Below, piece after piece: positions 47,733-53,081 of a stretch of 64,000 nt of DNA; positions within the stretch are counted from its first letter, which is position 1, and each line of letters begins with the position of its first letter. The translations under genes were made by a program, and so were the position numbers. The notes beneath the pieces were generated by a model. It was not told the DNA's origin, made no database searches, and saw nothing but the letters and a program-made list of their open reading frames with translations. Where the stretch lies: assembly GCA_963716745.1 (NCBI GenBank), contig OY970320.1, forward strand, positions 608,001 through 672,000. Direction: 5' to 3'. The stretch is from an uncultured Gemmatimonadaceae bacterium. GTDB taxonomy: Bacteria > Gemmatimonadota > Gemmatimonadetes > Gemmatimonadales > Gemmatimonadaceae.

Positions 47733-48785
<1,053 letters not shown>

Positions 48786-48803
48786 CTATTCGCGCCGGTC
48801 GCA

Positions 48804-49016
48804 TCACGCGACGGGGACCCCGCGCGGCGCGCGCTGGATCTTGCCGGCCGCGAGACAGCGGGTGCAGACCTTGATCTTGGTGATCTTGCCGTCGACGAGG
48901 ATGCGCGCGACCTGGAGGTTCGGCTTCCAGACCCGGCGCGTCCGGTTATTGGCGTGCGAGACGTTGTTCCCGAAGGTCACGCCCTTCTTGCACACGTAGC
49001 AACACTTGCTCTGCAT
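48804..49016 (-). CDS. rpmB: 50S ribosomal protein L28
   Basis: [24 protein letters not shown]...VCTRC. Confidence 0.96.
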
Positions 49017-49019
49017 GGG

Positions 49020-49376
49020 TCAGCCCTCGATCAGCTCGATGCGCGCCATCTCGGCGCCGTCACCCTTGCGGTGACCGATCTTCAGGATGCGGGTGTAGCC
49101 GCCGGCGCGCGTCTTGAAGCGCGGGCCGATCTCGGTGAACAGCTTGTCGCCCAGGTCGCGCTGCTGCACATGACGGCCGGCGAGGCGGCGCGCATGCAGC
49201 GTGCCGGTCTTGGCCTTCGTGATCAGCTTCTCGACGAACGGACGGAGCTCCTTGGCCTTCGCCTCGGTGGTCTCGATCGCGCCGTGCTCGATGAGCGCGG
49301 ACGCGAGCCCGCGCATGAGCGCGAGCTTCTGTTCGCCGGTGCGGCGGAGCTGACGGCCTGCCTTCTGATGGCGCAT
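49020..49376 (-). CDS. rplQ: 50S ribosomal protein L17
   Basis: MRHQKAGRQL, IETTEAKAKELR and GGYTRILK...RKGDGAEMA.IEL. Confidence 0.97.
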   Translation of the reverse strand: MRHQKAGRQLRRTGEQKLALMRGLASALIEHGAIETTEAKAKELRPFVEKLITKAKTGTLHARRLAGRHVQQRDLGDKLFTEIGPRFKTRAGGYTRILKIGHRKGDGAEMARIELIEG

Positions 49377-49382
49377 GGTGCT

Positions 49383-50448
49383 CTACTCCTCGTCGTCTGG
49401 TGCGGCGGCGGCGGCGCGGCTCGGCGGCGTGCCCCAATCGGTGACGCGCACGCCCTCGGCGCCTTCCTCGTACCGCATGCCGAAGTTCAATCCTTCACGC
49501 TCGAGGAGCGTCGCGATCTCCTGCAGCGACTTCTTCCCGAAATTCTTCACCTGCAGCATTCTGCGTCTCGGTCTGGCGCACGAGGTCGCCCAGCGTGCGG
49601 ATGTCCGAGTTCTTGAGCGAGTTCACCGAACGCACCGACAGCTCGAGCTCGTCGATCGGCGTCAGGAGCAGCGTCGCGAGACGGTGTCCGTCGCCCGAGT
49701 GGTCGCCCTCGACGCCGGCCACGCCCTGCGAGTGCGAACCGAAGTTCGCGAAGAACTGGAAGTGCGTCTGCGCCAGCGCGGCCGCGTAGCTCACGGCCTC
49801 TTCCGGCGTCAGCGTGCCGTTCGTCTCGACGGTGAGCGTGAGGCGGTCGTAGTCCGTCCGCTGGCCGACGCGGGTCTCGGCGACCGCGAAGTTCACGCGG
49901 CGCACCGGATTGTAGATCGCATCGATGCGCACGAGGTCGATCGGCAGGCCGCGGTCGGCGGGATGCTGGTCGCTCTCGAGGTAACCGCGCCCCTTGTTCA
50001 CGTAGAGCTCGATGTTCAGCTCGCGGTCATCCTGCAGCGTGAGGATGTGGTGCGAGGGATCGATGACCCGCGCCGCGCCGCTCTCCTCGATGTCGCGCGC
50101 CGTGACCGCGCCCGTGCCGTTCTTGCGGATCTTCAGCACCGTCTCGTCCACGTCGTCCGCGAGGACGAGCGTGAGCGTCTTCAGGTTGCCGATGATCTGG
50201 TGCACATCCTCGACGACGCCGGGGATGGTCTGGTGCTCGTGCAGCACGCCGTCGATGCGGAAGCCCCACACCGCCGAGCCGCGGAGCGACGAGAGCAGCA
50301 GGCGACGCATCGCGTTGCCGAGCGTGTGGCCGTAGCCGCGCTCCAGAGGCTGGACCCGGAATTCCGCGACGTTCGGACTGTCGTCCCGCTTCGTCGCCTC
50401 AACTACCTGCGGGCGAACCAGGCCCGTAAGATCGATCGCTTGCGCCAT
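49383..50448 (-). CDS. rpoA: RNA polymerase alpha subunit (apparent +1 frameshift near 49559)
   Basis: PLERGYGHTLGNAMRRLLLSS and LELSVRSVNSLK. Removing one base restores QMLQVKNFGKKSLQEI, ending at TAG 49383. Confidence 0.97.
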
Positions 50449-50464
50449 GCTTGGATTCCTCGAA

Positions 50465-50573
50465 TGGTCAGACCGGGAGAGCCCGGCCACGCTTCACCTC
50501 GCCTCTGATGCGCGGTGAACCCGTACGGGGATCAGAGCCCCGACCAGTGCAGCGGCACGCCGGAGCGCGCCGC
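50465..50573 (-). promoter_or_regulatory. Candidate structured cis-regulatory RNA upstream of rpoA (kissing-loop multibranch structure)
   Basis: Stems UGGUC/GACCA, GGGG/CCCC (loop CUCUGAU), UUCACC-CGC/GCG-GGUGAA (loop AUCAGAG) and GGCCGGG/CCCGGUC, plus an upstream cUCCGg hairpin. Ends 3 nt before the GAGGA Shine-Dalgarno. Confidence 0.6.
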
Positions 50574-50588
50574 ACCAATGCAACCGGA

Positions 50589-51221
50589 TTACTTGCTGTA
50601 CAACTCGACGATCAACTGCTCCTGCGCTGCGATCGGGATGTCCGTGCGGCTGGGCTTCTCGAGCATCTTGCCGCTGAACGTGTCCTTGTCCACGGCGATC
50701 CACGAGAGCGGCACGCCGCGTCCCGCCTGCTCCATCGCCTGGATCACGGACACCTGTTCGCGCGACGCCGGACGCACCCGCACTTCCTCGCCGGGACGCA
50801 CGAGATAGCTCGGGATGTCCACCTGCTTGCCCTTCACCTCAATGTGCCGGTGCCGGATGAGCTGGCGCGCGGCCTTGCGGCTCGCAGCGAATCCCATGCG
50901 GTAGACGATGTTGTCGAGGCGGCTCTCGAGCGCGCCGAGCAGGTTGTGCCCGGTGATGCCGGGGAGCTTGGACACGCGCACGAACGTGTTGCGGAACTGC
51001 AGTTCGCTCACGCCATACATGCGCTTCACCTTCTGCTTCTCACGCAGCTGCTTCGCGTACTCGCTCGCCTTGCGGCGGCGCGCGGTGCTCTGGCCGTGCT
51101 GGCCGGGCGCGTACGGACGGCGCTCGACCGGGCACTTCTCGGTGAAGCACTTGGTGCCCTTCAAGAAGAGCTTGGTGCCTTCGCGGCGGCACTGGCGGCA
51201 GCTGGGACCCGTATAGCGCAT
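50589..51221 (-). CDS. rpsD: 30S ribosomal protein S4
   Basis: YTGPSCRQCRREG, PGQHG, QLREKQK and LESRLDNIVYR. Confidence 0.98.
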   Translation of the reverse strand: MRYTGPSCRQCRREGTKLFLKGTKCFTEKCPVERRPYAPGQHGQSTARRRKASEYAKQLREKQKVKRMYGVSELQFRNTFVRVSKLPGITGHNLLGALESRLDNIVYRMGFAASRKAARQLIRHRHIEVKGKQVDIPSYLVRPGEEVRVRPASREQVSVIQAMEQAGRGVPLSWIAVDKDTFSGKMLEKPSRTDIPIAAQEQLIVELYSK

Positions 51222-51224
51222 CGG

Positions 51225-51617
51225 TCAGACCCTCCGGCGCTTCGGCGGACGGCACCCGTTGTGCGGGATGGGCGTCACGTCACGGATCGACTTGATCTGC
51301 AGACCGGCGGCGGCGAGCGCCTGGATGGCGGACTCGCGGCCGCTGCCCGGGCCCTGCACGCGCACATGGAGGCGCTTCACGCCGAGGTCCTTCGCTTCCT
51401 TCGCGCACATCTCGGCGGCGACGGTCGCGGCGAACGGCGTGGACTTCTTGGAGCCCTTGAACTGCGCCTTGCCCGACGACGCCCACGCGACGGTATTGCC
51501 GTGCATGTCCGTGATCGTGATGAGCGTGTTGTTGAAGGTCGCGTTCACGTGCGCGATCCCTTCGGATTCGACGGCACGCTTCGCCTTCTTGGGAGCGCCG
51601 GGTTTTGCGGTTGCCAT
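51225..51617 (-). CDS. rpsK: 30S ribosomal protein S11
   Basis: [23 protein letters not shown] and [18 protein letters not shown]. Confidence 0.98.
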
Positions 51618-51674
51618 GCTGTGCGAGCCTCTAGATCGGTAGTCGGAGAAAGCGGAGAATGCGGAGCGCCGCGA

Positions 51675-52052
51675 TTACTTGGTGACCTTCTTCTTCCCGG
51701 CGATGGCGCGGCGCGGGCCCTTCTTAGTGCGGGCGTTCGTATGCGTGCGCTGGCCGCGGACGGGCAGACCCTTCCGGTGGCGGACGCCGCGATACGAACC
51801 GATGTCCATCAGTCGCTTGATGTTCATGGCGACTTCGGTGCGGAGCGCGCCTTCGACGCGCAGGTCCTTCTCGATCGCCTGGCGGAGGCGGTTCGTGTCG
51901 GCGTCGTTCAAGTCCTTCGCGCGGATATCGGGGCTGACCCCGGTGTCGGCGAGGATCTTGCGCGCGGTCGCGCGCCCAATGCCGAAGATGTACGTCAGGC
52001 CGATCTCGATGCGCTTCTCGCGCGGCAGATCGACTCCCGCAATGCGTGCCAT
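51675..52052 (-). CDS. rpsM: 30S ribosomal protein S13
   Basis: [18 protein letters not shown] and [17 protein letters not shown]. Confidence 0.98.
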
Positions 52053-52055
52053 GGA

Positions 52056-52172
52056 TTAACCCTGCCGCTGCTTATGCTTTGGATTGCGCTTGCAGATGAT
52101 GCGAGTCACGCCGTTTCGCTTGACGACTTTGCAATGCTCGCAGATCGGCTTCACGCTGCTTCGAACTTTCAC
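52056..52172 (-). CDS. rpmJ: 50S ribosomal protein L36
   Basis: Manual translation from [41 protein letters not shown]. Too short for the ORF track. Confidence 0.97.
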
Positions 52173-52218
52173 AGGAACTCCGGTTTGGTGCCGAAACTGA
52201 AATCCGGTCAAGTCTCAC

Positions 52219-52247
52219 AGAATAACCAACTTAGAGTTCCAATGCAA
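52219..52247 (-). promoter_or_regulatory. Probable sigma70-type promoter of the alpha operon
   Basis: TTGCAT-N17-TATTCT on the minus strand, 46 nt upstream of rpmJ, in an AT-richer patch. Confidence 0.65.
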
Positions 52248-52264
52248 GGGAGGCGCAGGAGGTC

Positions 52265-52400
52265 ACCGCAGACCGCGGGGTTGGTACCGCAAGAGGCGCG
52301 TTAGCGTTGGCGTTGGGGATGACAATCACGACGCAAGCCACGGTTCCTAACGCCAACGCCACACACGCCCCCAGCGGTACCAGCCCCGCCCTCAGCGGTT
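52265..52400. repeat. Long palindromic intergenic repeat, family A, copy 3
   Basis: ACCGC..GCGGGGTTGGTACCGC..GGCGCGTTAGCGTTGGCGTTGGGGA / TCCTAACGCCAACGCCACACACGCC..GCGGTACCAGCCCCGC..CAGCGGT. Overlaps the pyrF stop codon. Confidence 0.88.
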
Positions 52401-53081
52401 CAACTCACGCAGTATTTCCGTGAGTTCCGCACCTGGATCCGTCGCCTCGGTCACCGCCCGGCCGAGCACCAAATAACTCGCCCCCGCCGCCACCGCCGCG
52501 GCCGGTGTCACCACCCGCGCCTGGTCATGCGCGTCCCCGCCCGCCCGTCTGATCCCCGGCACCAGAATAGCCAGCTCGTCTCCGAACGCCGCCTTCACCG
52601 CCCCACACTCGGCGCCCGAGCACACCACCCCATGCGCGCCCGCCTCCGCGGCGATCCCCGCGAGTCTCAACACCTCGGCGCTCAGACTCGTGATCGAGCG
52701 CCCCCACGCCGCGCCGAGCGATGGCGCGTCGAGCGAGGTGAGCACCGTCACCGCGAGCACTTTGCAATGCGCGCCTGCCCCTTCGACGGCCGCCTCGATC
52801 ATCGCGCGGCCGCCCGACGCGTGCACCGTCACGAGCGCCGCGCCCGTCGCGGCCGCATTGCGCGCCGCGCCGCGTACGGTGTTCGGAATGTCATGCAGCT
52901 TGAGGTCCAGGAACACGTCGCGTCCTTCGTCGCGCATGGCGCGCACGACCGGCGGCCCTCCCGCGGTGAACAGCTCGAGTCCCACCTTCACGAAATCGCA
53001 CGCCGCGCCGAGGCGCGCGGTGAGCGCCGCCGCCCGCGCGAGATCGGGCACGTCGAGCGCGACGATCGCGCGCGGCTTCAC
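52392..53081 (-). CDS. pyrF: Orotidine-5'-phosphate decarboxylase
   Basis: IVALD, KVGLELF, FLDLKLHDIPNTV, PGIR, DQARV and LVLGR. GTG start overlaps the corrected pyrD stop. Confidence 0.95.
   Translation of the reverse strand: MKPRAIVALDVPDLARAAALTARLGAACDFVKVGLELFTAGGPPVVRAMRDEGRDVFLDLKLHDIPNTVRGAARNAAATGAALVTVHASGGRAMIEAAVEGAGAHCKVLAVTVLTSLDAPSLGAAWGRSITSLSAEVLRLAGIAAEAGAHGVVCSGAECGAVKAAFGDELAILVPGIRRAGGDAHDQARVVTPAAAVAAGASYLVLGRAVTEATDPGAELTEILRELNR

Follow-up and report, generated by a model that had tools for sequence, protein, structure and literature searches.

In Gemmatimonadaceae, the mRNA that leads from rpsD, the gene for ribosomal protein S4, into rpoA, the gene for the alpha subunit of RNA polymerase, carries a structured RNA that, judged by comparative sequence analysis, is a family-wide feature. 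By structural class it is a kissing-loop RNA, as read from the compensated pairing between the 7-nucleotide loops of two supported hairpins (P2 and P3), and a predicted four-way junction is completed in most genera by two further helices, a closing stem (P1) and the stem of a variable hairpin (P4). The copy described here lies on the minus strand of the window, by which we mean the whole stretch of 64,000 nucleotides that was analyzed.

Locus and architecture of the element

The spacer between rpsD and rpoA had been given, in a preliminary description, as 140 nucleotides with a particular mRNA-sense text, and both the length and the text, letter for letter, proved accurate. Coordinates of the spacer, its helices, and the surrounding genes are collected in Table 1, together with pairing statistics from one of the alignments discussed below.

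Table 1. Features of the operon and of the rpsD-rpoA spacer in the window, with pairing in alignment A2
Feature	Position	Strand	Description	Cells paired in A2	Pairs changed on both sides in A2
rpmJ	52211-52056	-
rpsM	52052-51675	-
rpsK	51617-51225	-
rpsD (S4)	51221-50589	-	gene 5' of spacer
rpsD-rpoA spacer	50588-50449	-	140 nt; from stop TAA of rpsD to ATG of rpoA at 50448
Upstream hairpin	50573-50552	-	9 bp, UCCG loop closed by C-G, one G-U pair
Whole element, P1-P2-P3-P4	50546-50465	-	82 nt; one copy	96.4%	25/35
P1, 5' strand UGGUC	50546-50542	-	partner 50469-50465; outermost pair mostly unpaired in A2 (63/78)	83.1%	5/5
P2 hairpin	50541-50527	-	4-bp stem 50541-50538/50530-50527; 7-nt loop CUCUGAU 50537-50531	99.0%	3/4
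P3 hairpin	50524-50489	-	7-nt loop AUCAGAG 50509-50503	99.9%	5/12; 6 pairs never vary
Loop-loop (kissing) helix	50537-50531 with 50509-50503	-	7 bp, exact reverse complements	99.6%	6/7
P4 hairpin	50488-50471	-	7 bp, loop CUCU; loop length and sequence variable	95.2%	6/7
Single-stranded tail	50464-50449	-	SD-like GAGGA 50461-50457, then 8 nt, AUG 50448-50446
rpoA	50448-49383	-	frame shift near 49555; true C-terminus in ORF 49559-49383
rplQ (L17)	49376-49020	-	6-nt spacer from rpoA
rpmB (L28)	49016-48804	-	3-nt spacer from rplQ

The open reading frame that begins at the rpoA start runs to 49495 with an unrelated tail, and the conserved alpha C-terminal domain is found in the frame at 49559-49383. 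Similar breaks in rpsD or rpoA are seen in the related long-contig assemblies G002, G004, and G005, and the frame change in the window probably reflects an indel of the assembly and not a biological event; with the true end of rpoA at 49383, the distance to rplQ becomes the 6 nucleotides given in Table 1. Among 80 public loci, collected via the RpoA protein, rpoA and rplQ are 3 to 7 nucleotides apart in 79 of the 80 with both genes, and rpmB lies downstream of rplQ in 76 of 80, so that the spacer before rpoA is the only room from which the block rpoA-rplQ-rpmB could be controlled. The only other noncoding gap within the operon is the 57-nucleotide rpsM-rpsK spacer (51618-51674). Farther upstream, an imperfect hairpin of ~45 bp (52276-52388, minus strand) sits between a 540-amino-acid open reading frame (stop at 52392) and rpmJ; none of 200 shuffled sequences folded as stably (z = -5.55), and the hairpin could be a terminator-like barrier or a leader of the block rpmJ-rpsM-rpsK-rpsD. 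Weak miRNA-like Rfam matches at the same positions were dismissed, as they merely reflect this hairpin.

Within the element, P2 and P3 are joined by a linker of 2 nucleotides, and P3 is built, from its base, of 3 bp, a 2-by-1 internal loop, 6 bp, a 1-by-1 purine-purine mismatch, 3 bp, and the loop. These two hairpins, with the helix between their loops, form the universal core. The exact complementarity of the loops had been noted before; it is present in the window and is retained in relatives, with compensatory change. The closing stem that was said to enclose three hairpins fared less uniformly: it is found in most genera, but P1 and P4 are missing in several, and where P1 is absent, P4 is absent too. 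P4 loops range from 2 to ~30 nucleotides across relatives. Similarly, the 9-bp UNCG hairpin described upstream of the element does appear in the minimum-free-energy fold, which recovers it along with the three hairpins, but it is kept only in the genus of the window. P1, on the other hand, is not in the minimum-free-energy fold of the window copy and was not predicted by RNAalifold. The fold energy of the window's spacer is ordinary for its composition (z = -1.11; 21 of 200 shuffled sequences were equally stable), and it is therefore on comparison between genomes that the more-than-chance status of the element rests. A BLAST search placed the spacer as a single copy in its own 3.29-Mb genome, the remaining hits being chance GC-rich matches of 14 to 27 nucleotides; a reading of the spacer as a repeat or mobile element was rejected on this result.

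Covariation of the helices

A first alignment (A1) was made with MAFFT from 20 elements, one row of which comes from the unpublished genome G012. On this alignment RNAalifold independently gave P2, P3, and P4, with 23 pairs, of which 16 showed compensatory changes. When the full structure, including the pseudoknot, was imposed on A1, 94.3% of cells were paired, versus 84.1% after shuffling and 39 to 46% with slid partners; the loop-loop helix reached 99.3%, and six of its seven pairs were changed on both sides. The covariance model R1 holds only the nested helices, the loop-loop pairs having been left out, and alignment A2, which consists of the R1 matches (79 distinct rows, public contigs only), is therefore not fitted to the loop-loop helix. 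The pairing in A2 is given helix by helix in Table 1; the corresponding controls for the whole structure were 83.8% after shuffling and 39 to 48% when partners were slid by 1 to 3 columns. P1 retains its four inner pairs, for which GC, UA, AU, and CG occur as alternatives (A2). P2 occurs with the stem variants GGGA/UCCC, GGGG/CCCC, GAGA/UCUC, GGAU/AUCC, GGUU/AACC, and GACU/AGUC.

Pooling A1 and A2 with a third alignment from 30 genomes (A3) yielded 130 rows and 110 distinct cores, 104 of which have gap-free loops of 7 and 7 nucleotides. All seven loop pairs can form in 103 of these 104, in 18 different types of loop pair, and the sole exception, with six of seven, belongs to an assembly in which frameshifts occur as well. 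The complementarity ends exactly at the loop boundaries in the pooled cores. Covariation of the helices, the loop-loop helix included, thus strongly supports the earlier proposal of a structured kissing-loop element.

Column statistics located the compensated variation at the center of the loop-loop helix, in P2, in the middle of P3, and in P4, while the inner pairs of P3 and three loop-loop pairs are nearly invariant. The P3 helix positions that never vary are CC/GG, CGC/GCG, and CG/CG, and they include the three pairs next to the loop. The 1-by-1 loop of P3 is always purine-purine (GG in 80, GA in 14, AA in 11, and AG in 4 of the 109 rows with letters there). Most of the invariance lies in helices; nearly invariant unpaired positions are the G of the 2-by-1 loop, the G opposite, and the U before P3, and the junction linkers are variable. 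Frequent G-U pairs, claimed earlier as a sign that the structure works only on the mRNA strand, were observed in P2 (pair 16-31, in 28 of 77 letter-bearing cells of A2) and in P4 (pair 72-115, in 32 of 78). The opposite strand would have a C-A mismatch at each of these pairs, which assigns the structure to the mRNA-sense RNA.

Distribution and origin

All 80 public rpoA loci of Gemmatimonadaceae were matched by R1, each time on the coding strand and with the match ending at the rpoA start; 79 of the matches span the full model, the remaining one being truncated by the end of its contig. On the window's own genome the model gave a single match (102 bits, E = 1.6e-24). Two samples were then searched, a phylum sample of 151 genomes and a family sample of 151 genomes, at least 90% complete and including the unpublished genomes G012 and G183. 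In the phylum sample, besides the window's own genome, 30 of 31 genomes of the family had a match, as did 1 of 71 genomes of the next family and none of 48 in ten further families. The match outside the family, in G170 (E = 4e-4), was judged false, as it lies inside an open reading frame of 465 amino acids on a contig without rpoA and its loops are not complementary; R1 thus found no true copy in the 119 genomes of this sample that belong to eleven other families. A match was present in 148 of the 151 genomes of the family sample, which represent 60 of its 61 genera. The comparison of related spacers, proposed as a check in the preliminary description, showed the stems of the core and the complementarity of the loops to be conserved. 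There is one copy in each of 147 of the 148 matching genomes, and two, on different contigs, in G206.

Two of the three genomes without a match, G013 and G015, have no rpoA match in their assemblies either. The third, G126 (96% complete), has an rpsD-rpoA spacer of 128 nucleotides with another sequence and the same gene order. In this spacer (L152, 1374-1501), an unrelated GC-rich hairpin stands in place of the element, as a natural loss or replacement that makes this genome a useful point of comparison. Since G126 manages without the element in spite of the same gene order, the element is dispensable.

A BLAST search with the junction against 40 related genomes returned loci from 29 relatives, i.e., 30 loci together with the window's. 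The 20 loci from the window's family have spacers of 107 to 229 nucleotides, the 3' parts of which all share one conserved core. In two sister families, represented by five loci each, rpsD and rpoA are only 0 to 7 nucleotides apart, from which we infer that the element arrived when rpoA was uncoupled from rpsD. The 5' part of the long spacers is ~4 to ~150 nucleotides in length and is unrelated between genera, consisting of hairpins and tandem repeats. It appears as an insertion hotspot between the rpsD stop and the element in L026 (G021), L017 (G007), L015, L016, L018, and L024; the repeats have a unit of 8 to 9 nucleotides in G021 and of 7 nucleotides in G007, and long GC-rich hairpins are found elsewhere.

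The position of rpmB differs as well. In Gemmatimonadaceae it is codirectional behind rplQ (L009 to L025 and L152); in the two sister families it is convergent, on the opposite strand (L027, L029, L031 to L033, L035, and L153). This difference in orientation suggests that rpmB was brought into the operon by an inversion, which coincides in the tree with the appearance of the rpoA leader. While a link between element and rpmB was considered as a clue to the ligand, we discarded it, as it represents a single evolutionary event and G126 keeps the gene order without the element.

The start-codon side and transcription

Between the 3' end of the fold and the AUG lies a tail of 10 to 22 nucleotides (median, 17) in 87 distinct sequences, a count from which 11 rows were dropped because the last three positions of the model were not ATG. 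Of these 87 tails, 52 contain an SD-like 4-mer. The other 35 are G-poor, a few of them being parsing artifacts in which the SD abuts P1. Tails without an SD are rich in C, A, and U (e.g., L136, 1504-1520) and include single-contig genomes of the genus g35. The 3' end of the 16S rRNA of the window's genome carries the usual anti-SD. In genera that lack P1 and P4, the SD follows directly after P3, and the SD and AUG lie outside the conserved helices.

No terminator-like site was found in 50300-51000, and no promoter was detected in the same region by a scan for the sigma-70-type consensus only. In one relative, G096, only ~4 nucleotides separate the stop codon of rpsD from the element, too few for that spacer to hold a promoter. 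ARAGORN reported no tRNA-like gene in 50300-50750. Public sequencing runs numbered 24, with 14 recorded as RNA and 4 compared, in the form of contigs that carry no strand, ends, or level, so that no meaning attaches to stretches left uncovered. One RNA-library contig of 236 nucleotides (run X1, record 4), identical to G096, spans the 3' end of rpsD and the element, and a relative's contig spans rpsD, a 68-nucleotide insert, the element, and the start of rpoA. Such bridging contigs are compatible with a polycistronic mRNA and may also derive from DNA in the library. Finally, a crude short-motif sequence scan for mimicry of rRNA did not find the conserved P3 motifs together in either the 16S or the 23S rRNA of the window's genome.

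Possible functions

The element occupies a leader-type position, in that a conserved structure, recognized by its covariation, directly precedes the block it would regulate, with rpoA as the first gene. Its placement fits cis-regulation of rpoA-rplQ-rpmB, which we consider likely on these grounds. As for the mode of action, we lean, tentatively and short of real confidence, toward a translational operator that is likely protein bound, with L17 as the first candidate ligand. This reading draws on the compact and sequence-specific fold, the short and fixed distance to the AUG, the coupled gene block, and the occurrence of pseudoknotted operators in this operon. The element would act on the initiation of rpoA translation and would affect the coupled genes rplQ and rpmB by way of the junctions of 3 to 7 and 3 nucleotides, respectively. 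Ending 10 to 22 nucleotides before the AUG, the fold would reach the 5' edge of the stretch covered by the 30S subunit. As the SD and AUG are unpaired in the conserved fold, repression would have to be steric, with a protein on the invariant P3 helix blocking or trapping the 30S subunit, as in known operators of ribosomal proteins. The helix positions of P3 that do not vary speak for recognition of a specific sequence and not just for stability, and they suggest a protein ligand. Following the logic of autogenous control, that ligand would be encoded downstream, i.e., L17 and then L28; S4 would be less likely, as rpsD lies upstream of the element and outside its control. Counted against an operator are that L17 and L28 are not known as repressors in tested organisms and that L17 leaders are predictions, according to the available portion of the literature source (PMC7247131). 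The failure of the short-motif scan to find a sequence mimic in rRNA, the 35 of 87 tails without an SD, and the existence of G126 without the element also speak against it.

In three dimensions, a straight stack of P2, the loop-loop helix, and P3 would put the bases of the two hairpins ~25 layers apart, though a linker of just 2 nucleotides has to join them, so that P3 would have to fold back sharply. Its two conserved interruptions may be hinges that let its loop reach back to that of P2. Alternatively, the loop-loop helix and the basal helices might form by turns, which would make the element a switch. Such a switch is part of a more specific and, in our view, rather improbable reading, a dedicated sensor of the transcription machinery that binds free alpha, an assembly intermediate of RNA polymerase, or a signal molecule of the growth state, with the loop-loop helix and the full junction as alternative conformers and the P3 interruptions as hinges. 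If true, it would be the first rpoA-specific regulator, an inserted RNA switch that uncouples the synthesis of polymerase from that of ribosomal proteins within one operon.

It is possible, if on balance unlikely, that the element binds no ligand at all and serves as passive architecture, either insulating the ribosome-binding region of rpoA from the GC-rich hairpins upstream or shielding a processed rpoA-rplQ-rpmB mRNA at its 5' end; in either form it would fix an independent rate of rpoA translation after the uncoupling from rpsD. This would agree with a tail that is unpaired, and G-poor where the SD is absent, with the hotspot of unrelated hairpins and repeats in the 5' part of the spacer, with the examined loci of two sister families that have no spacer, and with G126, which does without the element, as well as with the lack of visible rRNA mimicry. 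However, mere architecture needs no invariant helix sequences, no fixed 7-bp loop-loop helix, and no interruptions of P3 conserved over 60 genera. Another idea is a riboswitch-like sensor for a small molecule or ion (e.g., an alarmone or Mg2+) that tunes synthesis of the alpha subunit, in which the loop-loop contact would preorganize a pocket. Such contacts do so in the purine and lysine riboswitches, a multihelix junction locked in this way being a common aptamer design, and a few unpaired positions of the element (the G of the 2-by-1 loop, the G opposite, and the U before P3) are nearly invariant. We nevertheless regard this option, raised in the preliminary description, as weakened and distinctly unlikely: no expression platform is apparent, there being neither a terminator nor a conserved helix to mask the SD or the AUG, both of which lie outside the conserved fold; the linkers vary, and P1 and P4, and with them the junction, are absent in some genera; most invariant positions are inside helices; and the downstream genes encode parts of the polymerase and ribosome rather than functions in metabolism or transport.

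A signal for transcription or processing (a pause, antitermination, an RNase site, or a tRNA-like substrate) that separates rpsM-rpsK-rpsD from the transcript of rpoA-rplQ-rpmB is very unlikely in our estimate. P1 and P4 would stack to 12 bp, like acceptor and T arms, a four-way junction with a 4-bp arm and a 7-nucleotide loop is cloverleaf-like, and the element does lie at the boundary of two gene blocks, where upstream hairpins could end or protect the upstream transcript; yet ARAGORN finds no tRNA-like gene, there is no terminator-like site, some genera have neither P1 nor P4 and yet show the same spacing to the AUG, and the RNA-library contigs, for what weak evidence they provide, run through the element. 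Hardly credible at all is the view that no functional RNA is involved and that we are looking at chance complementarity, a repeat at the DNA level, or a neutral insertion remnant. The fold energy of the window copy would allow it, but the element is single copy, 60 of the 61 genera have it, its loop pairs come in 18 compensated types, pairing collapses in the slid-partner controls, and the G-U pairs work on one strand only.

Relation to known systems

When both strands of 48500-52600 were searched against Rfam 15 (cmscan, E values up to 10), 50449-50588 remained without a match; the four weak matches elsewhere in the searched region were at chance level and lay outside the spacer. The expectation that the element would match no known Rfam family was thus borne out. 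Families covered by this search include the S4 operator of the E. coli alpha operon, listed in Rfam as Alpha_RBS, the S4 leaders, the L17 leader, L17DE, riboswitches, and ribozymes. Full-text searches of the literature, with subscription-only papers and supplements outside their scope, found no description of an rpsD-rpoA element, and the 2020 survey of ribosomal leaders (PMC7247131), in its available portion, contains no rpsD-rpoA motif and 0 mentions of Gemmatimonad-. We conclude that the element, previously proposed to be undescribed, is an apparently new RNA family that matches no described one, its general kind being known.

RNAs for feedback in ribosomal operons are lineage specific and mostly unknown beyond a few phyla, and we found none described for Gemmatimonadota. 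A conserved pseudoknotted fold before rpoA, set against the direct coupling of rpsD and rpoA in the sister loci, amounts to a natural experiment on the balance between polymerase and ribosome. In addition, the fully paired, 7-bp intramolecular kissing loop is unusually clean and, with 18 compensated variants, would be useful for structure work and for tests of pseudoknot prediction. The reach of the finding is limited to one bacterial family and to a regulatory class already known in principle.

Neighboring hairpins locked by Watson-Crick pairing of their loops are known from the lysine and purine riboswitches and from the X/Y "K" helix of the enterovirus 3' untranslated region, and RNA I and RNA II of ColE1 pair through loops of 7 nucleotides; fully paired loops of this size are sterically possible. 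None of these kissing loops is related to the element by sequence or family. The element differs from them in its very unequal hairpins (4 bp versus ~14 layers), which are only 2 nucleotides apart, and in its location in a ribosome-binding region inside an operon.

Closest in genomic setting is the E. coli S4 operator, which shares with the element the operon family (rpsM-rpsK-rpsD-rpoA-rplQ) and the principle of a pseudoknotted mRNA beside a start codon. It lies at the start of rpsM, where it traps the 30S subunit, and it does not control rpoA, the one gene of the E. coli alpha operon to escape S4 control, by a route left unexplained in the part of the source available (PMC3616713). The element, in contrast, lies at the start of rpoA, downstream of the S4 gene, and consists of two kissing hairpins in a junction, found in Gemmatimonadaceae, where the S4 operator is a double nested pseudoknot of Gammaproteobacteria.

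Predicted S4 leaders of Bacteroidia, Flavobacteria, Clostridia, and Fusobacteriales resemble the element as narrow, lineage-specific structures in the same operon, and their regulated sets include rpoA and rplQ, as described in the accessible text (PMC7247131); they lie upstream of rpsD or rpsM, where S4 can control itself, while the element lies behind rpsD. The predicted L17 leader of Actinobacteria and Proteobacteria (Eckert and Weinberg 2020, PMC7247131) is, like the element, a candidate L17 operator toward the 3' end of the alpha operon and is likewise known from covariation only, again going by the available portion of that survey. It is placed directly upstream of rplQ there, whereas the element precedes rpoA, with 3 to 7 nucleotides between rpoA and rplQ, and belongs to another phylum. 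A pseudoknot beside a ribosome-binding site is also found in the operators of S15 (rpsO; PMC3616713) and L20 (PMC1888825), which are bound by ribosomal proteins and act sterically or by entrapment, the latter being stated for the pseudoknotted operators of S4 and S15 alike, with 30S as the entrapped particle (PMC3616713), as far as the accessible parts of these two papers describe them. The S15 and L20 operators regulate the ligand's own, first gene, and their folds and lineages differ from those of the element, which, as a putative L17 operator, would act through rpoA on a gene farther downstream.
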